Origin: Alphaproteobacteria bacterium
GTDB taxonomy: Bacteria; Pseudomonadota; Alphaproteobacteria; UBA7887
Direction of reading: 5' to 3'
Assembly: GCA_047517485.1 (NCBI GenBank)
Contig: JAKZSU010000050.1
Span: 1-57,197, forward strand
DNA: 57,197 nt
Shown: piece by piece, positions 34,125 to 48,189 of the stretch
Layout of the letters: each line of letters starts with the position of its first letter
How positions within the stretch are numbered: the first letter of the stretch is position 1
Translations under genes and position numbers: made by a program
The notes under the pieces: generated by a model
The model's input: only the letters and a program-made list of their open reading frames with translations
What the model was told of the DNA's origin: nothing
Databases searched by the model: none

Positions 34125-34952
34125 TTAGTCGTTGGCGGGCCGGGGCCCAAATACGGCACCAATGAAACCGATCATCGCCTCGGATACAAGGTCGGTGGCT
34201 TCGGCATGGGGCGCGTGACCGCAGTCGGGCAGGAGCATGGTTTCGACCGGCCCGCTGACCGCGGCGCGGATCATGTCGAGCTGCGCCGGCGTGCCATAGG
34301 CATCATCCTCGCCTTGGAAGGCGAGCACTGGGCAGGTGATCGCGCGGAGATAGCCCTCGATATGAAACGCCTCGAAGTCCGGGTTCAGCCAGGCGTTGGC
34401 CCAGCCGTAGAAGGCGCTGTCGACGGTGTCTTTATGATACCGCGCGAGCTTGTCGCGCAAGTCGCCGACGCGATAGGCGGCGACCGCGTCCTCAATACTG
34501 GTAATCGATTCGGGTTCGACGAAAACATGCGCAGCCTCGGTGACCACCCCGCGAATCCGCGTATCCAAGGTCGCCGCCGCGAGCAGCGCGATCGATCCGC
34601 CATCGGAATGACCGACGAGGATGGCATCGCGCACCCCGGTTTGATCGAGCACCGCCGGCAGCACGTCGCGCGCCTCGACATGCATGAAATCCGGATCGCG
34701 CTCGTAGGGCGGCGCCAGCGGCTCGGACCCGCCATAGCCGTAGCGGTCATAGACCAGCGCCCCGCAGCGGCACGCCGCGGCCAGGGATTGCGGAAAATCC
34801 TTCCATTGTCCGACGCTGCCCAACCCTTCATGCAGGAAGACCAGGGTCGGCGCGTCCTCGGCCGGCGGGCCGAGCCACACCGAGTATAGCCGGCGGCCAC
34901 CGGCCACCAGCTCGAGCGATCGTGGCTCGACCGCGCCACTCTTATTCGCCAT
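34125..34952 (-). CDS. Alpha/beta fold hydrolase
   Basis: FLHEGLGS, YDRYGYGGS, nucleophile GHSDGGSI, QGEDDAYG and CGHAPH motifs. Confidence 0.9.
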   Translation of the reverse strand: MANKSGAVEPRSLELVAGGRRLYSVWLGPPAEDAPTLVFLHEGLGSVGQWKDFPQSLAAACRCGALVYDRYGYGGSEPLAPPYERDPDFMHVEARDVLPAVLDQTGVRDAILVGHSDGGSIALLAAATLDTRIRGVVTEAAHVFVEPESITSIEDAVAAYRVGDLRDKLARYHKDTVDSAFYGWANAWLNPDFEAFHIEGYLRAITCPVLAFQGEDDAYGTPAQLDMIRAAVSGPVETMLLPDCGHAPHAEATDLVSEAMIGFIGAVFGPRPAND

Positions 34953-36082: not shown

Positions 36083-36255
36083 CGAGGTGAGCCTCCTTTC
36101 GATCACGCGACATGCGCGATCTATCGATTGGATAGAAAAACTTACTTTTACGACAATCTATAATTGTGGTTGACGGAGCCTGAATGTCGCCCGCTATACA
36201 AAGGCCGCCGCAAAGCTTGTACAAAGGGGGAGTTATCGCCGATCCGGAGATCACC

Positions 36256-37113
36256 ATGCCGCTGCGGACTCTCGCGCTATCGATCGAAGATCACGTCGCG
36301 CAGGTGCGGCTCGACCGCCCGCGCGAGCTCAACACCATGACCTTCGCGTTCTGGCACGACATGGTCACCGCGTTCGCGACCATCGACGACGATCCGCGGG
36401 TGCGCGCGGTGGTGCTGTCGTCGACCGGGCGACACTTCACCGCGGGTCTCGATCTATCGGTATTCGACTCGCTAGCCGCCGATCACGACACCGCCGACGC
36501 CGATGCGGGGCGTGTCGGCGAACGCTTGCGGCGCACCGTGCTCGACATGCAGGAAAGCTTTTCGGTGATCGACCGCTGCCGGGTGCCGGTGATCGCGGCG
36601 ATCCAGGGCGGCTGTATCGGCGGCGGGATCGATCTGGTATCGGCGTGCGATATCCGGGTGTGTACGGCGGACGCGTTTTTCTGCATCCAGGAGGTCAATG
36701 TCGGCATCGTCGCCGACGTCGGCACCTTGCAACGCTTGCCGTACTTGATCCCGGCGGGTCTGGTTCGCGAACTCGCCTATACCGGACGCCGCCTGGCGGC
36801 CGAGGAGGCACGCAGCGCGGGGCTGGTCAACGCTGTGTTCGAGTCGCACGACGCGATGGTGGCCGGCGCGCTGGCGATGGCCCAAACCATCGCGGAAAAA
36901 TCGCCGCTCGCTGTCACCGGCACCAAGGAAATGCTTAACTATGCCCGCGACCACACCATCGCCGACGGATTGAACCATGTCGCGACGTGGCAGGCCGGCA
37001 TGTTGCGGACCGACGACGTGGCCCGCCAGATCGCCGCCAACAAGGCCAAGTCCGCCGCGCAATTCGAGGATCTACTGGCGCCTAAACGGCCGGCGACACG
37101 GCCAGGCCAATAA
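36256..37113 (+). CDS. Enoyl-CoA hydratase/isomerase (crotonase, ECH1-like); start ATG 36256
   Basis: FTAGLDL, PVIAAIQGGCIGGGIDL and ADVGTLQRLP motifs; TTGACG-N17-GCTATAC promoter-like sequence at 36170-36199. Confidence 0.9.
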   Translation: MPLRTLALSIEDHVAQVRLDRPRELNTMTFAFWHDMVTAFATIDDDPRVRAVVLSSTGRHFTAGLDLSVFDSLAADHDTADADAGRVGERLRRTVLDMQESFSVIDRCRVPVIAAIQGGCIGGGIDLVSACDIRVCTADAFFCIQEVNVGIVADVGTLQRLPYLIPAGLVRELAYTGRRLAAEEARSAGLVNAVFESHDAMVAGALAMAQTIAEKSPLAVTGTKEMLNYARDHTIADGLNHVATWQAGMLRTDDVARQIAANKAKSAAQFEDLLAPKRPATRPGQ

Positions 37114-37132
37114 TTTTACCGGGAGAACGCGC

Positions 37133-38314
37133 ATGTCCGAGAATTGCTGGACCCGAATAGCGGGCGGATTGATGGTGGCGGTGGGAATGGCGATAGTCGC
37201 CGCGCCGACGGCGGCGGAAATGATGCTCGCCGGTATCGACAACAAGGTTTCTTTCGCCGGGGCCAGCACCGTGTTCGGACCGCCGGGCAAGGACTTTGTT
37301 TCGGTGATCGACATCGCCAATCCCTCGTCGCCGCGCATCATCGCCAATCTCCAACTCGATAATTCGCTGTTCGGGCCACCGACCAATTTGGCGATCACGC
37401 CCGACGGAAGCCTCGCGCTGATCAACAACGCGATGGCATGGAACGCCGAGGGTGACGGTTGGAAACCGGGGCCCGACAATCGTCTGTTTGTGGTCGATCT
37501 GACCGTCGATCCGCCGCAACTGATCGACACCGTCGAGGTTGGCGGGCAACCGTCGGGGATGGCGATCAATCGCGCCGGCGACCTGGCGCTGATCGCCCAT
37601 CGCGCCGACAATTCGATCGGCGTGCTCGAGATTTCCGGTAAATCGGTGCGTCTGGTGCAGACCCTGGATATGGGCGAGCAAGTCACCACGGTGGCGATCA
37701 CCCCCGACGGTCGCCGCGCGCTGGTGGCGAAATTCCCCGCCCACAAGATCGCCGTGCTCGATATCGAAAACGGGCGGATCAGCACGAACGCCGAACTCGA
37801 CATGCCGGTCGGCCGCTGGCCGTACAATGTCAAGATCACCCCCGACGGCACCTTGGCGCTGACCGCCGACAACGGCAATGCCGGGCGCTCCGACGGCCAT
37901 ATCGACACGGTAAGCGTTATCGACTTGACCGTCGAGCCGCCACGCGTCATCGACCGCATCGCCATCGGCGACGCGCCGGAAGGCCTGGCGATCAGTCCAA
38001 CCGGCGAGATCGCCGTCGCGATCCTGCTCAAGGGCAGTGCCGGTGTGCCCACCGACTCGTGGTTCTACAATCGTAACGGCAGTGTGGTGGTGCTCGCCAT
38101 CGACGGCAAATCGGTGACCCGGGTCGGCGAAGTCGAGGTTCGCGGTCTCCCCGAGGGCGTGGTGTTCAGCGCCGACGGCAGTCATCTCTACGTCGGCAAT
38201 TTCGTCGATGCGGACGTGTCGATCCTCGAAGTCGATGGCACCACGGTAACCAATACCGGACGCACCTTGTCGCTGCCCGGCACCCCGGGATCGATGGGCA
38301 GCAGCCAGCCCTGA
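37133..38314 (+). CDS. Exported YncE/lactonase-like beta-propeller; start ATG 37133
   Basis: Signal peptide; repeated (A/V)ITPDG and VGxxPxG blades; xVSVID repeats. Confidence 0.8.
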   Translation: MSENCWTRIAGGLMVAVGMAIVAAPTAAEMMLAGIDNKVSFAGASTVFGPPGKDFVSVIDIANPSSPRIIANLQLDNSLFGPPTNLAITPDGSLALINNAMAWNAEGDGWKPGPDNRLFVVDLTVDPPQLIDTVEVGGQPSGMAINRAGDLALIAHRADNSIGVLEISGKSVRLVQTLDMGEQVTTVAITPDGRRALVAKFPAHKIAVLDIENGRISTNAELDMPVGRWPYNVKITPDGTLALTADNGNAGRSDGHIDTVSVIDLTVEPPRVIDRIAIGDAPEGLAISPTGEIAVAILLKGSAGVPTDSWFYNRNGSVVVLAIDGKSVTRVGEVEVRGLPEGVVFSADGSHLYVGNFVDADVSILEVDGTTVTNTGRTLSLPGTPGSMGSSQP

Positions 38315-38362: not shown

Positions 38363-39778
38363 TCAGGCCAAACGCACATACTCGTACTCAATCGGCTGAC
38401 CGTTGATGCCGCGCGCCGGCGGCGCGATCCAATTCGCCATCTGTCCGGCGCCGGTCACCGGCTTCATGAGCGAGGCAATATAGGCGTGGTCGTCGTCGTC
38501 GGGAAGCCATTGGTTTCGTTCGCCAAGCCACGCCGCCTCGGCCATCGGCGCTCCTGTGGGTGAGAAGAACGCACCGGCGAAAGTGCCAATTTGGCGGTGA
38601 AAGGCGGAGGCCGGCAAACGCAGCTCGAACGCGATGTCGTGCGCCGCGATCACTTTGTTCCAGCGCGCCAGGCCGCGCGCGCAATCCGCCGTGTAATCGT
38701 CCCGCAGCCGCTCGTTCAGCGCCGACAAGGCGGGCACTTCGAGCGAACCGCCTTCGAGCGACGGCACTTGGTAAGCCTCTTCGCCAAGCACATGGTCGTC
38801 GTCGATCTTGCTCTCTTGATAGCGACCCTTGAGCCCCGCCGTATAGTAGTTCGCCGCGTTGGTCGATTGCTCGGCGCCGAACAGGTCGGCCGAGACGCTG
38901 TAATGAAAATTGATGTAGCGCTGCAGGGTTTCGAGGTCGATGCCGCCGTGCGCGCGGACCTCGGCCGGGTCGCTGATCTTGTGCTCTTTCATCAGCTCGC
39001 AGGCGCGCTGGACGATGCGGCCGACGCCGCTCTCGCCGACGAACATGTGGTGCGCCTCCTCAGTCAGCATGAAACGACAAGTGCGCGACAGCGGATCGAA
39101 AGCGGATTCCGCGAGCGACGCGAGCTGGTATTTGCCGTCGCGATCGGTGAAATAGGTGAACATGAAGAACGACAGCCAGTCCGGTGTCGCTTCGTTGAAG
39201 GCGCCGAGAATCCGCGGCTTGTCGGGATCGCCCGAATGACGGTCGAGCATCTCCTCCGCTTCCTCGCGCCCGTCGCGACCGAAGTGGGCGTCGAGCAAAT
39301 AGACCATCGCCCACAAATGCCGGCCTTCCTCGACATTGACCTGGAACAGGTTGCGCAGATCGTACAGCGACGGGCAGGTCTTCCCCAGCAGACGCTGCTG
39401 CTCGACCGATGCCGGTTCGGTATCGCCTTGGGTAACGATGAGCCGGCGCAAGGTCGAGCGATACTCGCCCGGCACATCTTGCCAAACCGCGTCACCCTTG
39501 TGCTCGCCGAAGCCGATGCGCCGGTCCTCGACCGCCGGGCTGAGAAAAATTCCCCAGCGATAATCGGGCATCTTGACGTAATCGAAATGCGCCCAGCCGC
39601 CCGACTCGACACTGATCGCGGTGCGCAAATAGACCTCGATGTCCTGATAGCCCTCGGGCCCGAGTTCGCGCCACCAATCGATGTAGCGCGGCTGCCACGC
39701 CTCCAAGGCCCGCTGCAGGCGCGCATTGTCGCTGAGTTGGACATTGTTGGGGATGAGTTCGGAATAATCGATCGCCAT
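38363..39778 (-). CDS. boxB: Benzoyl-CoA 2,3-epoxidase, di-iron subunit
   Basis: YRWGIF, QGDTEPASVEQQR, PSLYDLRNLFQVNVEEGRHLWAM and TEEAHHMFVG motifs. Confidence 0.95.
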   Translation of the reverse strand: MAIDYSELIPNNVQLSDNARLQRALEAWQPRYIDWWRELGPEGYQDIEVYLRTAISVESGGWAHFDYVKMPDYRWGIFLSPAVEDRRIGFGEHKGDAVWQDVPGEYRSTLRRLIVTQGDTEPASVEQQRLLGKTCPSLYDLRNLFQVNVEEGRHLWAMVYLLDAHFGRDGREEAEEMLDRHSGDPDKPRILGAFNEATPDWLSFFMFTYFTDRDGKYQLASLAESAFDPLSRTCRFMLTEEAHHMFVGESGVGRIVQRACELMKEHKISDPAEVRAHGGIDLETLQRYINFHYSVSADLFGAEQSTNAANYYTAGLKGRYQESKIDDDHVLGEEAYQVPSLEGGSLEVPALSALNERLRDDYTADCARGLARWNKVIAAHDIAFELRLPASAFHRQIGTFAGAFFSPTGAPMAEAAWLGERNQWLPDDDDHAYIASLMKPVTGAGQMANWIAPPARGINGQPIEYEYVRLA

Positions 39779-39781
39779 GGT

Positions 39782-41479
39782 TCACACCCTCTTCATATCG
39801 AATTCGCTGCGCCGACCGCTGCCGAAGAGGGTCAGCGCGCCGTCCGGCCCAACCGCGTTGGGACGCTGGAATATCCAGTTCTGCCAGGCGGTCAGGCGGC
39901 CGAAAATCTTGGTTTCCATGGTTTCCGGCCCGGCGAAGCGGAGGCTCGCCTCCATGCCGGTCAAGGCGTCGGGCGAAAAGCTCGCGCGTTCCTCCACCGC
40001 GAGCCGGACCTCGTCGTCCCAATCGATCGCATCGGGAATGAAGGTGACCAGACCGAGATCATCGGCGTCGGCCGCCGCCAGCGCGTCGCCGCATGCCGCA
40101 TGTGCCGCCGCCAGCGCCGCCTCGTCGTCGAGAAACCGGGTCGCCAATCGCGACAGGCCGTTTGCCATCGCCAGGGCGCCGAAATTCATTTCGCTCAGCG
40201 CGACGCTGGGCGCCGGCTCATCGTCGAGCATGTAGCTGCGATCGGCCGCCAGCACCAACTCGAACAAAGTGCCGGCGAAGCAGCTCCCGGGCTCGATCAA
40301 GGCGATCAGGCTGCGCGACGACATATCCAGGCGCTTGAGCACCCGCTTCCAGTACAGGGTGATCTCGCGCGCCAGCCAGTGGTCTTGGTTGGCGAGTAGA
40401 AATCCGTCGTGCGCCCCCACCAGGGCCCCGTCACCAGTGCTGTTCAGCACCCAGGTGCCGATTTCCGGGCGATTGGTGCGGAGATGGAGAATCGCATCGT
40501 CGAGCGCCCGGGCGAGCGCCAGCGCCCATACGCCGTCGCCCGCCCGGGCCAGATCATCGAGGCTCGCCGGCGGATCCTGGTCCGGTCCGGCAACGACAAA
40601 TGTCGCCACCCGCCGGTCGCCATCGATGGCGATGTCGAGAAACCGATAGCTCAGGCGCTCCGGATCGAGGGTGCGGGCGAGCGGCCCGAGCGCTATCCCC
40701 GTGCCGTCACGCGGGCGATCCGATTGCGCGGCGATCGTCTCGGCGCGGGCGCGCGCCTCGGCCATCAGGGTCGACGGCCGTGCCAAGGCATCGACCAGGC
40801 CCCAGTCGCGGGCGCGGCGGCCGCGCAGGCCTTCCGCCGTGGTGCACAGGAAATCCGCGCGATCGCGCCGCACCTTGCGCTTATCGACCAGGCGGGTCAG
40901 ACCGCCGGTGCCGGGCAACACCGCGAGCAAAGGCAGTTCGGGTAACGAGACCGCCGACGCGCCGTCATCGGCGAGGATGATTTCGTCACATGCGAGCGCC
41001 AGTTCGTAGCCGCCGCCGGACGCGGTGCCGTTGAGCACCGCGATATAGGTCTGGCGCGAGTATTCGCTGGCGTCTTCCATGCCGCAGCGCGTCTCGTTGG
41101 TGAACTTACAAAAATTCACTTTCTCGGCGTGCGCCGATTGACCGAGCATGCGGATGTTGGCACCGGCCGAAAAAACCTTGTCCTTGGCCGAGGTCAGAAT
41201 GACCGCGCCGACTTCCGGGTGCTCAAATCGCAGCCGCTGCACCGCGTCGTAGAGCTCGATATCGACGCCAAGGTCATACGAGTTGAGTTTGAGCTCGTAG
41301 CCTGGTTTGAGCGATCCCGCCTCGTCGACATCGAGGGCGAGGGTCGCCACCGCGCCGTCGAAGGCGAGTTTCCAGTGGCGATAGGCCTCGGGAGAGGTCC
41401 GAAAATCGATCGCCGAGTCGGTGTTCGACGCTGCCGCGCCCGGATCACCGGGCTGGACCTGACCCTCGTGTTCGGTCAT
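39782..41479 (-). CDS. boxC: 2,3-epoxybenzoyl-CoA dihydrolase; start probably ATG 41479
   Basis: YRHWKL, LKLNSYDLGVDIEL, FSAGANI, NFCKFTNETR, LAVLPGTGG and IFGRLTAWQNWIFQRPNA motifs. Confidence 0.95.
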   Translation of the reverse strand: MTEHEGQVQPGDPGAAASNTDSAIDFRTSPEAYRHWKLAFDGAVATLALDVDEAGSLKPGYELKLNSYDLGVDIELYDAVQRLRFEHPEVGAVILTSAKDKVFSAGANIRMLGQSAHAEKVNFCKFTNETRCGMEDASEYSRQTYIAVLNGTASGGGYELALACDEIILADDGASAVSLPELPLLAVLPGTGGLTRLVDKRKVRRDRADFLCTTAEGLRGRRARDWGLVDALARPSTLMAEARARAETIAAQSDRPRDGTGIALGPLARTLDPERLSYRFLDIAIDGDRRVATFVVAGPDQDPPASLDDLARAGDGVWALALARALDDAILHLRTNRPEIGTWVLNSTGDGALVGAHDGFLLANQDHWLAREITLYWKRVLKRLDMSSRSLIALIEPGSCFAGTLFELVLAADRSYMLDDEPAPSVALSEMNFGALAMANGLSRLATRFLDDEAALAAAHAACGDALAAADADDLGLVTFIPDAIDWDDEVRLAVEERASFSPDALTGMEASLRFAGPETMETKIFGRLTAWQNWIFQRPNAVGPDGALTLFGSGRRSEFDMKRV

Positions 41480-41494
41480 AGTCGGCTCCAATTA

Positions 41495-41508
41495 GGTATG
41501 GTTATACC
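41495..41508. promoter_or_regulatory. Candidate operator palindrome between the divergent boxC and GNAT genes
   Basis: GGTAT-GGTT-ATACC in an AT-rich ~50-bp divergent gap. Confidence 0.35.
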
Positions 41509-41530
41509 GATTTAGAAACAGGGTACCCCG

Positions 41531-42001
41531 ATGCCCCCAAGAGTCAAGCCGGGAGTGAACCCGGACCCGATCGCCATTCGCCCCATCCGCGACAGCGATC
41601 TCGCCGCGGTGGTGGCGCTCGACGCGCGGACCACGGGCGAGTCCAAAGCGGACTATTGGCGCGCCGCGTTCGATCGCTATGTCGCGACAACCGACCAGGC
41701 GTGCGCCTTCGCGGCGGTGCAAGGGGCGGACTTGGTCGGCTATGTAATGGGTGAGGTGCGCAGTTGGGAGTTCGGATCGCCGCCGTGCGGCTGGGTGTTC
41801 GCCGTCAACGTCGCGCCGGGGTGTCGCGAGGCCGGAATCGGCACGAAATTGTTCGCCGCCGCCGATGCCGCGTTTCGAAAAGCAGGGGTAAAGTCGATTC
41901 GCACGATGGTAGCGCGCGATGCGACGCTGCTAATGTCATTTTTTCGCGCCCAAGGCATGACCGCGGGGCCCTTTGTCGAGCTTGAATTGCCAATCGATTA
42001 G
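41531..42001 (+). CDS. GNAT acetyltransferase, BadL-like
   Basis: GEVRSWEFGSPPCGW, acetyl-CoA motif REAGIGTKL, and RTMVARD...SFFRAQG; divergent from boxC. Confidence 0.8.
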   Translation: MPPRVKPGVNPDPIAIRPIRDSDLAAVVALDARTTGESKADYWRAAFDRYVATTDQACAFAAVQGADLVGYVMGEVRSWEFGSPPCGWVFAVNVAPGCREAGIGTKLFAAADAAFRKAGVKSIRTMVARDATLLMSFFRAQGMTAGPFVELELPID

Positions 42002-42006
42002 ATCAA

Positions 42007-42115
42007 CTATCCACAGGAATTTAAACTCATATCTTATTGTTTTAGATTAATTAAATTCGAAATAATCGAGTTATCCATAGGATATATCTTAAAATTACCC
42101 ACAGACTGGGGATAA
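42007..42115. promoter_or_regulatory. AT-rich cluster of four DnaA-box-like nonamers
   Basis: CTATCCACA (42007), TTATCCATA (42071), TTACCCACA (42095) and TGGGGATAA (42107; reverse complement TTATCCCCA), each one mismatch from TTATCCACA, in the most AT-rich stretch of the window. Confidence 0.6.
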
Positions 42116-42215
42116 CTCTACGATAGAGACACGCCGAACCATACCGCATGTGTATTGTTCATAAAATAAACACTATCACTTCCGGTTGGCGGGGCAGGAA
42201 TGCGGGTGATAAACT

Positions 42216-43445
42216 ATGGCGGCTAAGGACGCCGACCAGGTGTCCGGCGGGCATCAATTGGCCCCAAGGATCGGCACACTCATGAGCCACGATAACGCGG
42301 CGGCAGGCATCGACGACAGCGCCGAACCATCGGCCGCCGCGCACGCCGCGCATCTCGGAATTTTGCCGCATCAGGCGCTCGCGTCCTTGATCGACGCCGG
42401 CGAAATATCCGCCGCCGCCGCGATCCTGCCGGAACAGGTCCAACCGGCGAGCCTCGACCTCCGTCTCGGCTCCGTGGCGTATCGCGTCCGCGCGAGTTTC
42501 ATGCCCGGCCCCGGCGTGCCGGTGCTCGACAAGATCGACCAATTCGGCATGCACTCGATTGGCCTGACCGGCGGCGCGGTTCTCGAACGCGGCTGCGTCT
42601 ATATCGTTCCGTTGCAGGAGACATTGGCGTTGGCGAGCCGGTTGTCGGCGTTCGCCAATCCCAAAAGCTCGATCGGCCGGCTCGACGTTTTCACCCGGGT
42701 TATCACCGACGGCGGCACCGCGTTCGACCGCGTCCCCGACGGCTATGACGGCCCGCTCTACGCCGAGATCGCGCCACGCACCTTTTCCATCCAGGTGCGC
42801 GAGGGCTCCAGGCTTTGCCAATTGCGACTGCGACGCGGCACGCCAAAGCTCGCCGCCGGCGCGCTGCGCGATCTGCATGAGCGCTACCGCCTGGTCGAGA
42901 GCGCCGCCGGTATCGCGCCGATTATCCGTGACGATCTGGTCGGCGTGACCCTCGATCTCGCGGCTTCGGGCGGCGACGGGCCGATCGGATTTCGGGCCCG
43001 CAAGCATACCGACATTATCGACGTAGATGCGCGAGGCGCCTACGATCCGGTGGAGTTTTGGGAGCCTATCACGCCGCACAAAGGCGGCGGCATCGTTCTC
43101 GACCCCGATGATTTTCACATCCTGGCCACCCGCGAACGGGTCGCCGTGCCGCCCGATTACGCCGCCGAGATGGTCGCCTACGATACCTTGGTTGGCGAGT
43201 TCCGCGTCCATTACGCCGGTTTCTTCGATCCCGGCTTCGGCTTCGGCGCCGGCGGCGCGTCACGCGCGGTTCTCGAAGTGCGCTCGCACGATGTGCCGTT
43301 CCTCCTCGAACACGGCCAGATCATCGGCTGGCTGCGCTATGAGAAACTCGCCGGCACGCCCGACCGAGTCTATGGCAGCGATATCGGCTCGTCCTATCAG
43401 GGCCAGGGCTTGAAGCTCGGCAAACAATTCACCCCCTGGCCGTAA
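42216..43445 (+). CDS. dcd: 2'-deoxycytidine 5'-triphosphate deaminase (long alphaproteobacterial type)
   Basis: QPASLDLRLG, ANPKSSIGRLDVF and EFRVHYAGFFDPGFG motifs; duplicated dUTPase-like fold. Confidence 0.88.
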   Translation: MAAKDADQVSGGHQLAPRIGTLMSHDNAAAGIDDSAEPSAAAHAAHLGILPHQALASLIDAGEISAAAAILPEQVQPASLDLRLGSVAYRVRASFMPGPGVPVLDKIDQFGMHSIGLTGGAVLERGCVYIVPLQETLALASRLSAFANPKSSIGRLDVFTRVITDGGTAFDRVPDGYDGPLYAEIAPRTFSIQVREGSRLCQLRLRRGTPKLAAGALRDLHERYRLVESAAGIAPIIRDDLVGVTLDLAASGGDGPIGFRARKHTDIIDVDARGAYDPVEFWEPITPHKGGGIVLDPDDFHILATRERVAVPPDYAAEMVAYDTLVGEFRVHYAGFFDPGFGFGAGGASRAVLEVRSHDVPFLLEHGQIIGWLRYEKLAGTPDRVYGSDIGSSYQGQGLKLGKQFTPWP

Positions 43446-43457
43446 TACCAGCTTGCG

Positions 43458-43868
43458 ATGAAACTTCAGACCGCGACTCGGCTCGCCTTATACGCGGTGA
43501 TCGATTTGGCCGGCGCGGCGGGCACCGCGCGCTCGGCGAGCGACATCGCGGCCAGCCACGGCGCCTCGGTCGCCCACATGGCCAAGGTCATGCAGACCCT
43601 CGCCCGCGCCGGCATCGTCGAGGCCACGCGCGGCGCGCGCGGTGGCTATCGCTTCGCCGCCAATCCACGCCGCACGTCCTTGCTCGACGTAATCGAATTG
43701 TTCGAACCGGTTGAAGTCACCGCGCATGCCGCGGCCAATCCTGGTCGTACCGACGCCGCGGTATCCGACGCGCTCGACCGCGTATTGGCGGAGATCGACG
43801 ACATTGCCCGCGCCACCCTCGGCTCGATCACCCTCGATACCCTGTTGAAGACGATTCGCGCCGCTTGA
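43458..43868 (+). CDS. Rrf2 family regulator lacking Fe-S cysteines (BadM-like)
   Basis: HMAKVMQTLARAGIVEATRGARGGYRF...SLLDVIELFE; no Cys in the sequence. Confidence 0.85.
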   Translation: MKLQTATRLALYAVIDLAGAAGTARSASDIAASHGASVAHMAKVMQTLARAGIVEATRGARGGYRFAANPRRTSLLDVIELFEPVEVTAHAAANPGRTDAAVSDALDRVLAEIDDIARATLGSITLDTLLKTIRAA

Positions 43869-43946
43869 CCAGCCATAGTCTAGCCTTTACCAACCGCGAC
43901 TATGGGGGATAGTCTCGGCGCGACGGTTACCAGGCAAGGCAAAAAA

Positions 43947-45203
43947 ATGACGCAACGCGGGGAACATTACGACGATCTGGAAATACGCGACCCGGAGCGG
44001 CGAGAAGCGGCGCAGTTCGAGGCGCTGCGCGACCAGATCACATCCGCCAAGCATCACAGCCCGGCCTGGGGCCGGATATTAAGCGGCATCGACGGCGAAG
44101 AAGTGACGTCGCGCAAGGCGCTGGCGGGTCTGCCGGTAACGCGAAAATCGGGACTGATCGAGCTGCAGAAAGCCAACCGCCCGCTCGGCGGCCTGACCAC
44201 GCGCCCGCCCGGCGAGATGAGCTGGGTGTTTTGCTCGCCGGGGCCGATTTATGAACCCGGCATTCAGCGCCGCGATTATTGGCGCATGGGCCGCGCGCTC
44301 TATGCGGCCGGATTGCGCCCTGGCGACATCGCCTACAACACGTTCGCCTACCATCTAACGCCGGCCGGTCATATGATGGAAGCTGGCGCCCATGCCTGCG
44401 GCTGCGCGGTGGTGCCGGGCGGCATCGGCAATACCGAGCAACAAATCCAGGCGATCAACGATATTCGACCCAACGCCTACATCGGCACCCCCTCGTTCTT
44501 GCGAATTCTCTTCGAACGCGCCCGCGAGGCCGGCCTCGATACCTCGAGCATCACCAAGGCTTCGGTCGGCGGCGAGGCGCTGCCGCCGAGCCTGCGCGAC
44601 ACCTTCAAGCAAGAGGGCGTGGCGGTCCTGCAATCCTACGGCACTGCCGATCTCGGCCTGATTGCCTATGAATCGCCGGCGCTCGAAGGCATGGTCATCG
44701 ATGAAGGGGTTATCGTCGAGATCGTCACGCCGGGAACCGGCGATCCGGTCGCCGAGGGCGAGGTCGGCGAAGTCGTGGTCAGCGTCCTCAATCCCGATTA
44801 TCCGCTGGTTCGTTTCGCCACCGGCGATTTGTCGGCGGTCCTCGCCGGCCAGTCAGCGTGCGGCCGAACCAATACCCGCCTCAAGGGCTGGATGGGCCGC
44901 GCCGACCAGACCACCAAGGTCCGCGGCATGTTTGTCCATCCGACTCAGGTCGGACAGGTGGTTTCCCGCCATCCGCAGATCGGCAAGGCGCGGCTGGTAA
45001 TCGACAACCCGGATCAGTCGGACCGCATGACCCTGCGCTGCGAGATCGCCGGCGATGTAAGCGCGGACCGCGCCGCCCTGATCGCGGAAATCGCCGGCTC
45101 GGTGCAAAGCCTTTGTAAGGTGCGCGGCGACGTCGAGCTCGTCGGTCCGGGTAGCCTCCCCGATGACGGCAAGGTTATCGACGACACAAGGGTCTATGAG
45201 TAG
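43947..45203 (+). CDS. Phenylacetate-CoA ligase (PaaK)-like AMP-dependent ligase
   Basis: SPGPIYEP, YIGTPSFL, QSYGTADLG, RFATGDLS and GRADQTTKVRGMF motifs. Confidence 0.85.
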   Translation: MTQRGEHYDDLEIRDPERREAAQFEALRDQITSAKHHSPAWGRILSGIDGEEVTSRKALAGLPVTRKSGLIELQKANRPLGGLTTRPPGEMSWVFCSPGPIYEPGIQRRDYWRMGRALYAAGLRPGDIAYNTFAYHLTPAGHMMEAGAHACGCAVVPGGIGNTEQQIQAINDIRPNAYIGTPSFLRILFERAREAGLDTSSITKASVGGEALPPSLRDTFKQEGVAVLQSYGTADLGLIAYESPALEGMVIDEGVIVEIVTPGTGDPVAEGEVGEVVVSVLNPDYPLVRFATGDLSAVLAGQSACGRTNTRLKGWMGRADQTTKVRGMFVHPTQVGQVVSRHPQIGKARLVIDNPDQSDRMTLRCEIAGDVSADRAALIAEIAGSVQSLCKVRGDVELVGPGSLPDDGKVIDDTRVYE

Positions 45204-45347
45204 CAATCGCTACCCCGCCGATCATGTCGCCCCTAGAGCGCTGATATAACACGAATTTTCGCCATTCGGTGACCACCGTCACAGTATCGTCGACAATTCG
45301 CGACTATCTCTTTGAGCATACAAAACTTGTTCTCGGGGATCGTCTTC

Positions 45348-45497
45348 ATGCCGCGCCATCATCACCACCGATCGCTTCACCGCGCGATCGGTCTCGCCGT
45401 CGCTACACTTTTCGTCCTCGGAATGTTCGCCGTTAGCCCGCTTTTCGCCGACGCCGAACAGTACCGAACGCCGCATTCCGCCGCCGGCCAATTCTAA
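45348..45497 (+). CDS. Possible 49-aa His-rich exported peptide
   Basis: MPRHHHHRSLHRAIGLAVATLFVLGMFAVSPLFA-DAEQYRTPHSAAGQF; GGGGA RBS-like sequence; signal-peptide-like architecture. Confidence 0.35.
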   Translation: MPRHHHHRSLHRAIGLAVATLFVLGMFAVSPLFADAEQYRTPHSAAGQF

Positions 45498-45642
45498 CAA
45501 TCGCTTGATCGACAGCTAAAAATCCTTCCGACCCAGACCGGATTTCGGTTTAGACTTAGATCGTGGCTGTTGGGGAAGTCGGCGCCGTTTCGATGGTTCG
45601 AGCCGGGCCGACCGTTTCCGCTATCGAAACGAGGTTGGGACA

Positions 45643-46347
45643 ATGTCGCTGGAAAGCAGGGACGATATACGCGCGATCCTGGGGCGGCATTTTTTGCTCC
45701 GGCATCTGGAGGCGAGCGAGCTCGATCAGTTGCTCAAATTCGCCAAGCTCAGGCATGGGCGACCGAACGAAGTGTTGTTTCAAAAGGGCGATCCCGGCGA
45801 CGGCCTGATCGCCATCATCGAAGGCCGAGTCAAGATCAGCACCATGTCCGCCGAAGGCAAGGAGATCGTGCTCAACATCCTCGGTCCCGGCGAACTGTTC
45901 GGTGAAATCGCGCTGATCGACGGCAAGGACCGCAGCGCCGACGCAACGGTGATGGAAAACGCCGAGCTGGTGGTCATCGACGTTCGCGACTTCATGCCCT
46001 TCCTCGAGGAGCGGCCGGAACTGGCGACCCGACTGTTGGTGATGCTGTGCGAACGGTTTCGCTGGGTCAACGATCTCTATGAGGATGCCATCTTCATGCA
46101 TCTTCCGGCGCGCCTGGCGAAACATTTGATCCGTCTCGGCGAATCGTTCGGCGACGAGTCCGACGACGGCGTGCGCATCGGCATCAAATTATCGCAACAG
46201 GATCTTGGTAATCTGATGGGAACCACCCGGGAAAGCGTCAACAAACAAATGCGCACCTGGATAAACAGCGGCATCGTCTCGGTCGACCACGGCATCATCA
46301 CCATTCTCGACCAAGACCAGTTGGAGCTGTTCTGCGATCCCTTTTGA
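45643..46347 (+). CDS. Crp/Fnr family transcriptional regulator
   Basis: cNMP-binding domain (LFQKGDPG, GELFGE, RSADA) and HTH LSQQDLGNLMGTTRESVNKQM. Confidence 0.92.
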   Translation: MSLESRDDIRAILGRHFLLRHLEASELDQLLKFAKLRHGRPNEVLFQKGDPGDGLIAIIEGRVKISTMSAEGKEIVLNILGPGELFGEIALIDGKDRSADATVMENAELVVIDVRDFMPFLEERPELATRLLVMLCERFRWVNDLYEDAIFMHLPARLAKHLIRLGESFGDESDDGVRIGIKLSQQDLGNLMGTTRESVNKQMRTWINSGIVSVDHGIITILDQDQLELFCDPF

Positions 46348-46581
46348 GGGCGCGCGCCGCGCGGGCATTGCCACACAATCGCCATCAAATCGACCTGAAG
46401 CCGCCCGATTTCGGACCCACTACGGCCGCAGTTTCGCCATACCTAGACCGCCGAGGGGACGTACTGTCGGGGGGTAATTCGGCGAGAGGCACATTCGGAC
46501 GTGTCGCATGCGATCGGCTTAGTCGAAATCGACACGAACAACGGGCACTCGCCCTCTTCCCCCATTTGGGGAGCAACAATC

Positions 46582-48189
46582 ATGACGCTTACGCAACTAC
46601 GACTTGCTGCCACGGCCGGCCTCTTGATCGCGGCCACGATACTTACTGCCTGCGATAAAACGCCCGATACATACGCGAATTATCGCGTCAGCTCGTCTTC
46701 CGCCGCACCAGCGGCGATGATTCACGCATCGATGGCGGACCACCCCAATCGCGAGCAATATCCCGCATTCGAGACGAGCCGGTTTCGCCGCGCCGACGAA
46801 GCGCCGGTCTCGACGTTCTCGGTCGACGTCGATACCGCCGCGTACAGCAATGTCCGTCGCATGCTGGTCGCCGGTCAGCTGCCGCCGCACGAAGCGGTGC
46901 GGGTCGAGGAGATGATCAATTATTTCGACTATGCCTACCCGACACCGGCGGATCCGTCGGTCCCGTTCGCCACCAGCGTCGCGGTGGTGCCGGCGCCGTG
47001 GAGCGAGCACAAATTGCTGCTCCACGTCGGCATAAAAGGCTACGAGACCGCGCCCGAGCAGCGCCCGCGCGCCAATCTGGTGCTTTTGATCGATGTTTCG
47101 GGCTCGATGTCGGGCCAAGGCCGGCTCGAACTGGTCAAGCAATCGTTCCGCCTCATGCTCAATCGGCTCGACGACCAAGATAGCGTCGCCATCGTCACCT
47201 ATGCCGGCCGCTCCGCGGTCGTGCTGGAGCCGACTCCGGCACACCAGCGCGCAAAAATCCTAAGCGTTCTGGGCTCTCTTCATTTCGGCGGGTAGACCGC
47301 CGGCGCGGCCGGGCTCGCCACCGCCTACCAACTTGCCCAACAAGAGTTCGATAGTGACGCAGTCAACCGGCTAATTTTGGCGACCGACGGCGATTTCAAT
47401 GTCGGGGTCTCCGATCCAAAAGCGCTCGAAAGAATGATCGCCGCCAAACGCAAAACCGGCATTTACCTTTCGGTCTTGACCGTCGGCCAAGGCAATCTTA
47501 ACGATCGCATCGCCCAGGCCTTGGCGCAGACCGGTAATGGCACCGCGGCGCACATCGACTCGCTGATGGAAGCCCGCAAGGTGCTCGACGACGAACTCGC
47601 GTCGACTCTCTTTCCGATCGCCAACGACGTGAAAATCCAGATCGAATTCAATCCGGCGCGGGTCGAGGCCTATCGGTTGATCGGCTATGAAACGCGCCTG
47701 CTGCGGCGCGACGATTTCGCCAACGATCGCATCGATGCCGGCGAGATCGGCAGTGGTCACGCGGTGACCGCGTTGTACAAAATCGTGCCGACAGAGGGCG
47801 GGCCGTGGCGCACCGAGCCCCTTCGCTATCAACCGGAAGCGGTCTTCATCGATCACGACGGGCAATCCGGCGAATATGCCTTCTTGAAAATTCGCTACAA
47901 GCGGCCGGGCCAATCCACCAGCCACCTCATTACCCGGCCGGTCGAGGATCTCGATCGCATCGACTCGCTCGACGCGGCCGGCATGGACGTCAAGTTCGCC
48001 GTCGCCGTCGCGGCTTTCGGATTGCGCCTGCGCGAAGATGCGGAACTGGCAGACCTGACTTATGCCAACATCGTTGCGATCGCCCAGCCGGCGCGCGGTG
48101 AAGACACCTATGGCTACCGCGCCGAGTTCATTCGCCTGGTACGGACCGCGGAAACCCTAACCGAAACCCAGATCAGCGATCGCCACTAA
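46582..48189 (+). pseudogene. YfbK-like VWA-domain lipoprotein interrupted by an in-frame TAG at 47293-47295
   Basis: Lipobox LTAC; STFSVDVDTAAY, VRVEEMINYF and MIDAS DVSGSM motifs. Reading continues in frame past GGG-TAG-ACC into TAG(A)...LILATDGDFNVG and a DUF3520-like C-terminus. Confidence 0.82.

Follow-up and report, generated by a model that had tools for sequence, protein, structure and literature searches.

Which protein controls boxB and boxC, the genes of an oxygen-dependent route for benzoyl-CoA, in a bacterium in which no BoxR is found? The established box and bzd regulators, BoxR and BzdR, sense benzoyl-CoA. The question is raised by positions 38363–43868 of an alphaproteobacterial contig (GenBank JAKZSU010000050.1, C50), which was analysed over its whole length of 57,197 nucleotides (the window) and is one contig of a 3.69-Mb metagenome-assembled genome (MAG) that is 92% complete. 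Here a gene for a GNAT acetyltransferase is divergent from boxCB, and a gene for a cysteine-free Rrf2 regulator follows further on, on the strand of the GNAT gene. We put a probability of roughly 0.7 on the reading that the two proteins are the halves of a cassette of the BadL/BadM type that has been recruited to box genes in place of BoxR, and that the product of the GNAT releases the repressor. A sequence-only reading of the same DNA had proposed that a BadL/BadM-like pair may control aerobic box genes, and the comparative data support this: GNAT and Rrf2 are co-inherited, relatives of the pair stand in reductase clusters, the protein ends fit those encoded in published primers, no sampled box locus has both the pair and BoxR, benzoyl-CoA reductase is missing from the tested genomes with a box-linked pair, and a conserved palindrome tracks the pair.

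The reference system is that of Rhodopseudomonas palustris, in which BadL acetylates aminobenzoates and the products free the Rrf2 repressor BadM from the badDEFGAB promoter (PMC6191541). In this organism badL is needed for derepression unless badM is deleted and, according to the deletion primers, lies directly upstream of badM (PMC6191541); the enzymology used homologous GNAT–Rrf2 pairs of Magnetospirillum magneticum (amb3392) and Geobacter metallireducens (Gmet_2096) (PMC6191541; VanDrisse and Escalante-Semerena, 2018).

The GNAT–Rrf2 pair and its relatives

The gene identities on which the proposal was built are borne out: boxB and boxC score above the cut-offs of TIGR03225 and TIGR03222, the acetyltransferase matches PF00583 and a spacer of ∼50 bp separates the divergent genes (Table 1). 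The Rrf2 protein is likewise as described, with no cysteine among its 136 residues and with a start 1,457 nt past the GNAT stop. The description of the two genes as lying ∼1.5 kb apart is right as to the distance, but the pair is normally an adjacent operon and is split here by a housekeeping gene, dcd, which the sequence-only reading had left unnamed.

The GNAT family is tight (879 matches), and members from other classes are 50–57% identical to the window protein. Its motifs are GEVRxWEFGSPPCGWVFA, SFFRxQGM and an RxxGxG acetyl-CoA loop; the loop of the window protein, R99-E-A-G102-I-G104, is conserved across the family and fits the pattern R/QxxGxG/A. A homologue of the window Rrf2 protein, 43–57% identical to it, is encoded directly after the GNAT gene in 78 of 80 fetched loci, and the remaining two stop at a contig edge. 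Over 128 loci, GNAT and then Rrf2 are adjacent in 125, with a median gap of 23.5 nt and a largest normal gap of 206 nt. A gap of ∼1.5 kb occurs only in the window and in its two closest relatives, L107 (a 4.78-Mb metagenomic contig) and L109, and dcd fills all three gaps; in the window the GNAT and Rrf2 genes keep the order and strand of the family on either side of it. The trees of the two proteins are congruent in their groupings, and the window, L109 and L107 form a group with 100% support in both. The co-occurrence of GNAT and Rrf2 is far beyond chance and, because of the adjacency in relatives and the congruent trees, the split pair can be regarded as original partners rather than as unrelated genes.

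Comparison with the BadL and BadM proteins that have been studied was limited to the gene ends that can be read from the primers listed in PMC6191541. These give BadL C-termini of ..MEKNLD for R. palustris, ..FIQFEKDL for M. magneticum and ..IELEKPLD for G. metallireducens. In the GNAT family 116 of 128 members end in F/Y-I-x-L-E-x-x-L-D, the window protein ending in FVELELPID; some members end in ..ELEKNLD or ..LELEKPLD and many cluster representatives in ..YIQLEKDL, and the exact termini are absent among the 50%-identity representatives. R. palustris BadM starts with MPMRLQKS according to the primers; the window Rrf2 protein starts with MKLQTA, and ∼120 of the 128 partners start with (M/V/L)(K/R)LQ. 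The C-terminal tails of the Rrf2 proteins are variable and uninformative for this comparison, and the 5′ primer of R. palustris badM, when scanned against metagenomes, had 12 matches, none of them Rrf2-related. Cysteine is lacking altogether from 108 of the 128 Rrf2 family members, and none has three (i.e. there is no three-cysteine motif); BadM has been described as being without the Fe–S-coordinating cysteines of IscR, NsrR and RirA (bioRxiv 10.64898/2026.06.27.734994). One box-linked GNAT was deposited as 'putative acetyltransferases BadL', and PDB searches returned only distant relatives for both the GNAT and the Rrf2 protein. Membership of the BadL/BadM family thus appears to be well supported by context and partly by sequence.

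A second group of GNAT proteins, 24–34% identical to that of the window, is found inside clusters for benzoyl-CoA reductase and for 4-hydroxybenzoyl-CoA reductase (Hcr), with one or two copies per cluster (L234, L236, L220, L235, L237, L238 and others). These paralogues are often in tandem or fused into a two-domain protein, have no Rrf2 partner and end in ..GFxPSQRLxF.. or ..GFxLAPRxVLER..; a BadL-like C-terminus was found in none of the 30 GNAT paralogues from reductase clusters. For the present family they were rejected as the true BadL orthologue, their C-termini being unlike those of the three BadLs.

The cassette itself occurs in several catabolic settings. Its usual place is an anaerobic benzoyl-CoA cluster with a reductase of the badDEFG type, the setting from which BadL and BadM are known: it lies beside such reductase genes in at least 22 loci, including one in G007, a genome of the window's own family, and in L054 the C, B, A and D subunits of the reductase score 711, 852, 712 and 432 bits, all above the curated cut-offs. 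Settings in Burkholderiales hold HcrA, a PaaK ligase and a molybdenum-bis(pyranopterin guanine dinucleotide) (Mo-bisPGD) enzyme; elsewhere there are benzoate-CoA ligase genes. At 48 loci surveyed among L004–L083 and L100–L106, mostly from Burkholderiales, the pair is divergent from a Mo-bisPGD oxidoreductase of ∼912 residues that is distantly similar to PhsA and DmsA. Such loci (e.g. L005:6471-9209 and L008:5883-6527) also hold an NrfC/DsrO-type Fe–S subunit, often with the PaaK ligase and HcrA near by; the set, which has no NCBIfam match at the curated cut-off, may be a PadBCD-like phenylacetyl-CoA oxidoreductase. On a conjugative At plasmid of Agrobacterium tumefaciens (L251, NZ_CP123840.1, 232519-256884), hcrABC-like genes are divergent from the pair, and downstream of the pair come a liv-type ABC transporter and a benzoate-CoA ligase. 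The arrangement resembles badM-badL-hbaHGFE-hbaA of R. palustris, and the host of the plasmid is a named, cultivable aerobe carrying the cassette.

Box clusters, a predicted operator and a proposed switch

Of the 401 genomes sampled from the class, ∼80 hold boxB, and 77 alphaproteobacterial box loci were fetched (L141–L217). BoxR, recognized as an HTH_3 domain joined to a shikimate-kinase domain (SKI), is present at 37 of these and the pair stands divergent from boxC at eight; no locus has both (Fisher p = 0.0055). The claim that the window has no regulator of the BoxR/BzdR type stands and extends to the whole genome, since tblastn with the BoxR of related box loci found no HTH_3 plus shikimate-kinase regulator in the window or in the 92%-complete, 3.69-Mb assembly. 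The eight genomes with a box-linked pair have no further copy of it. Subunit B of benzoyl-CoA reductase (TIGR02260) is absent from these eight sampled genomes and from G000 and G004; the reductase is absent from all ten tested genomes with a box-linked pair, that of the window included, for which a tblastn search gave no reductase subunit. G003 and G007, which belong to the family of the window, do have the reductase, and their pair is not at the box locus. In both protein trees the box-linked pairs are scattered over about six positions among those linked to a reductase.

A published survey reported BadM next to anaerobic clusters only, with BoxR accompanying box clusters (PMC10803450). BoxR and BzdR, XRE-type repressors of box and bzd genes known from Azoarcus sp. 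CIB, have been surveyed in Betaproteobacteria (PMC6449761) and for BCL (PMC10803450). Full-text searches yielded no paper tying BadM or an Rrf2 protein to box genes. The arrangement is not unique to the window: it occurs at ∼10% of the sampled alphaproteobacterial box loci.

The box-linked spacers between boxC and the GNAT gene share, in register, the palindrome AATTnGGTAy-N4-wTACCnATTTAs, which in the window is separated by 10 nt from the ATG of boxC and by 16 nt from that of the GNAT gene (Table 1). Eleven of 12 box-linked loci carry its core, RGTAY-N4-WTACY, upstream of the GNAT gene, as do the reductase-linked loci L054, L056, L076, L079 and L101 and the Agrobacterium plasmid. Of 68 core matches in 1.89 Mb, 28 fall within the 3.4% of sequence that lies just upstream of GNAT genes. 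A leave-one-out position weight matrix derived from 13 sites in other genomes gives the window site 35.4 bits, the best score in the 3.69-Mb genome, with the next unrelated site at 16.4 bits. Upstream of boxC the core is present at all eight loci at which the pair is adjacent and at two of the three loci without BoxR whose genome has the pair elsewhere (those of G340 and G003), and is absent from all 36 BoxR loci and all 20 loci with neither regulator. The motif upstream of boxC hence tracks the pair, at ten of 11 loci versus none of 56 others, and this distribution is the strongest argument that the Rrf2 protein would act on boxCB.

On the cassette reading, an Rrf2 dimer would bind the palindrome AATTAGGTAT-N4-ATACCGATTT (41490-41515), which fills the 50-bp spacer, and would repress both divergent units, boxCB and the GNAT gene. 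The substrate of the GNAT would be a small aromatic amine and, if BadL is a guide, an aminobenzoate; once acetylated, it would bind Rrf2 and release it from the DNA, boxCB would be derepressed, and more GNAT would then be made in a positive feedback. In the window clade, in which dcd separates the repressor gene from that of the GNAT, the repressor would be made from the dcd promoter region with its DnaA boxes, and its supply would then be independent of the operator. The DNA binding, the repression, the identity of the ligand and the co-transcription with dcd are what we infer from sequence comparison.

Several points weigh against this reading. The orthology with BadL and BadM rests on 6–8 terminal residues of each, on synteny and on the name given by one depositor, and the GNAT family has a phenylalanine (in SFFRxQGM) in place of the catalytic tyrosine of many GNATs. 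The window clade sits on a fairly long stem of the GNAT tree (0.55 changes per column) and is 45–57% identical to other members, and the ligand specificity of its GNAT may have changed. The repressor gene lies behind dcd, unlike in any described badLM operon. The 50-bp spacer is too short for two classical promoters, and a sigma-70 and terminator scan of 41300–45700 found none there, so the mode of action of the operator is not evident from the layout of the spacer. Finally, tblastn found no homologue of boxA (reductase) or boxD (aldehyde dehydrogenase) in the window genome and the best match to TIGR03224, at 36 bits, is below the cut-off; the completeness of the box pathway in this 92%-complete MAG is uncertain. 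Homologues of boxA are present at ∼14 of the 77 alphaproteobacterial box loci, and many loci carry a flavodoxin gene beside BoxR instead.

The alternative that fares best, which we nevertheless consider unlikely, retains the Rrf2 protein as a repressor of boxCB at the palindrome and takes a metabolite of the pathway, benzoyl-CoA or benzoate, as the effector. The GNAT would then be an accessory protein, acting in aromatic amine detoxification, protein acetylation or fine-tuning, and not an obligatory maker of the inducer. That BoxR and BzdR sense benzoyl-CoA would suit this alternative, as would the lack of the usual catalytic tyrosine in the GNAT family; the R. palustris literature, moreover, calls the benzoate-only accumulation of acetamidobenzoate unexplained, and the effects seen there in electrophoretic mobility-shift assays needed 10 mM ligand (PMC6191541). 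An accessory role sits poorly, however, with the co-inheritance of co-evolving GNAT and Rrf2 proteins at 125 of 128 loci across classes, which argues for an obligatory partnership, with the genetic requirement for badL in R. palustris, lifted by deletion of badM (PMC6191541), and with the GNAT gene having stayed beside the operator even after the split by dcd.

It seems improbable that the pair is left over from an anaerobic or hydroxybenzoate cluster and lies beside boxCB by chance, with Rrf2 regulating only what follows it (the gene for the PaaK-like ligase and, in relatives, those for the ABC transporter) and with boxCB under some other control. Gene order is what speaks for a remnant: the window Rrf2 gene is immediately upstream of the ligase gene, and an ABC transporter and a CoA ligase follow Rrf2 in relatives, as in the badM-badL-hbaHGFE-hbaA order of R. 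palustris and on the Agrobacterium plasmid. Yet the sole genome-wide match to the motif lies between boxC and the GNAT gene rather than in front of the ligase gene, presence of the motif upstream of boxC goes with the pair (10/11 versus 0/56), the pair and BoxR are mutually exclusive in box loci, genomes with a box-linked pair have no reductase at all, and the linkage to box genes recurs in about six places on the tree. Least credible of all is that the palindrome, which is predicted from sequence alone, is AT-rich and ends in TTTAC as part of a possible −35-like element, is a promoter element or the site of a different, unlinked regulator and that the co-occurrence of pair and box genes has no regulatory meaning: the motif lies upstream of the GNAT gene in box, reductase and plasmid contexts, which have only the GNAT and Rrf2 genes in common, its dyad of ∼26 bp is typical in size for an Rrf2 operator, and it is absent from all 36 box loci of the BoxR type.

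The cassette reading can be taken further, in a form that we consider unlikely. The cassette would then sense flux through the benzoyl-CoA funnel irrespective of the pathway and would not be a regulator of 'anaerobic benzoate' genes; it would move among reductase, hydroxybenzoyl-CoA reductase, phenylacetyl-CoA-type and box clusters, and its signal would be an acetylated metabolite common to all of these routes, not necessarily an aminobenzoate. In the window clade the circuit would have been rewired: the GNAT would remain under the operator, with positive feedback, and the repressor would be expressed with dcd from a promoter bearing DnaA boxes, its dosage being tied to replication or deoxynucleotide metabolism.

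Two side observations concern the chemistry around box genes. About 20 of the 77 box loci carry a PnbB-like gene (4-hydroxylaminobenzoate lyase, PF16155), a curious tie of box clusters to the chemistry of amino- or hydroxylaminobenzoates. The window genome encodes, despite having no benzoyl-CoA reductase, a homologue of the alpha subunit of 4-hydroxybenzoyl-CoA reductase (C166:21277-23514) that is 66% identical to HcrA of L005; the aerobic box route may receive 4-hydroxybenzoyl-CoA.

The dcd insertion and the surrounding genes

The features of the locus are collected in Table 1. For boxC, an ATG at 41480 is preceded by GGAG, and the open reading frame (ORF) stays open to a TTG at 41491.

Table 1. 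Features at and around the box/GNAT/dcd/Rrf2 locus (positions in the window).
Feature	Position	Strand	Basis or remark
Alpha/beta-fold hydrolase, box-cluster accessory	34125-34952	minus	Pfam Abhydrolase_1/6
Crotonase/enoyl-CoA hydratase family protein	36184-37113	plus	NF004794, 345 bits; also in L109
Beta-propeller (lactonase-like) protein	36977-38314	plus	Weak Pfam Lactonase match; homologue in L109
boxB, benzoyl-CoA 2,3-epoxidase oxygenase subunit	38363-39778	minus	TIGR03225, 834.6 bits (cut-off 499)
boxC, 2,3-epoxybenzoyl-CoA dihydrolase	39782-41480/41491	minus	TIGR03222, 877 bits (cut-off 712)
Predicted Rrf2 operator, AATTAGGTATGGTTATACCGATTTAG	41490-41515		Conserved palindrome, core GGTAT-N4-ATACC
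BadL-type GNAT acetyltransferase, 156 aa, presumed inducer maker	41531-42001	plus	PF00583, E = 8.7e-10
AT-rich spacer, 37% G+C, with DnaA-box-like sites and GTTC-N7 element	42002-42215		Probable dcd promoter region
dcd, two-domain dCTP deaminase	42216-43445	plus	NF005734, 524 bits
Putative BadM-type Rrf2 repressor, 136 aa	43458-43868	plus	PF02082, 92.5 bits; TIGR00738, 94.9 bits (cut-off 73.3)
PaaK-family aryl-CoA ligase	43902-45203	plus	NF041878, 153 bits (cut-off 700; below the PaaK cut-off)

The same dcd insertion is present in L107 and L109. In the window genome dcd is single-copy, which rules out that it is a second, specialised copy. The spacer before it holds the near-consensus DnaA boxes CTATCCACA, TTATCCATA, TTACCCACA and TTATCCCCA, i.e. 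four of the six one-mismatch boxes of the 57-kb window, together with a TGTTCA-type element, and the corresponding place in L107 and L109 holds perfect inverted TTATCCACA boxes and a GTTC-N7-GAAC dyad. These sites point to control of dcd by DnaA and perhaps also to an SOS-like control. As there is no switch in GC skew, the spacer was ruled out as a replication origin. The spacer probably provides dcd with a separate promoter region. Between the dcd stop and the start of the Rrf2 gene lie 12 nt, with no terminator found there, so that the repressor is probably co-transcribed and made with dcd, the GNAT gene staying by the operator.

An arrangement related to this one was seen at L167 (G003:C119, 4069-8295), where boxB and boxC are followed by the operator-like sequences AGTACTAAAATACC and AGTACTGTTTTACC and then by dcd and a PaaK-like ligase that is 69% identical to that of the window. 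There is no GNAT or Rrf2 gene at L167, and the pair of G003 is on another contig (L103).

The closest PDB relatives of the window ligase are phenylacetate-CoA ligases, and its orthologue comes after Rrf2 and an ABC transporter in L109 and after dcd in G003. A start of the ligase at the ATG at 43948 was ruled out because it is out of frame with the ORF, which begins at 43902. An inverted repeat, CCATAGTC-N17-GACTATGG, with a third ATAGTC, spans 43873-43915 from the Rrf2 stop to the start codon of the ligase (43902); it is unrelated to the GGTA/TACC motif and may serve as a further operator or fold as an RNA hairpin.

Beyond boxB, the alpha/beta-fold hydrolase is 42% identical to a hydrolase family found at many of the 77 box loci; the same gene is in L107 and L109. 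The beta-propeller ORF overlaps the crotonase ORF by 137 nt, and its true start is probably later than the start of the ORF. The flanks hold the housekeeping genes acnA, htpG and ccmBCEF. Two adjacent ORFs on the same strand, 46501-47295 (vWF_A, VWA) and 47377-48189 (YfbK_C), correspond to the N- and C-terminal parts of a YfbK-type protein and may be a frameshifted or mis-assembled single gene.

Significance and comparison with known regulators

To our knowledge, BadL/BadM is the only described catabolic repressor system in which release depends on a small molecule that is first acetylated by a dedicated acetyltransferase, and the studies of it known to us concern a single target, the oxygen-sensitive benzoyl-CoA reductase of a phototroph. 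The same cassette on aerobic box genes, at about one in ten alphaproteobacterial box clusters, never with BoxR and in genomes without the reductase, would give this switch a reach wider than the single pathway in which it has been studied. For bacteria without BoxR it offers a concrete candidate for box regulation, with a predicted operator sequence. Aerobes would also be a simpler setting in which to find the physiological ligand; why acetamidobenzoates report on benzoate is still unexplained. The splitting of the pair by dcd, for its part, would be a tidy natural example of regulatory rewiring.

The window pair has in common with BadL/BadM of R. palustris and with the M. magneticum and G. 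metallireducens pairs a small GNAT gene that comes first and a cysteine-poor Rrf2 gene on the same strand. The setting, a benzoyl-CoA catabolic cluster, is also shared: relatives of the window pair have an ABC transporter and an aryl-CoA ligase downstream, and some directly adjoin reductase genes of the badDEFG type. The window differs from BadL/BadM in that the putative target is the oxygen-dependent boxCB operon of a genome without benzoyl-CoA reductase, in that the pair is split by dcd, so that the repressor probably comes from another promoter, and in that the predicted operator lies in the GNAT–boxC spacer, which would place the GNAT gene itself under the switch.

With BoxR and BzdR the window Rrf2 protein would share a gene close to the box genes, near boxC, and action at the box promoter region. 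It differs from them in fold (an Rrf2 winged helix–turn–helix versus HTH_3 plus SKI) and in its predicted operator, and whereas BoxR senses benzoyl-CoA directly, a repressor of the BadM type relies on a ligand produced by a partner enzyme. Among Rrf2 regulators of known structure, IscR, NsrR, CymR and RsrR (PDB entries 4cic, 4hf1, 5n08, 2y75 and 6hsd) have a similarity of 24–39 bits to the window protein. Like these, it should have a winged-helix N-terminal domain and a dimerisation helix and would recognize a palindromic operator of ∼26 bp; unlike regulators of the IscR/NsrR type, it has no cysteine ligands and hence no Fe–S cluster, and its N-terminus, M(K/R)LQ, is specific to the subfamily.

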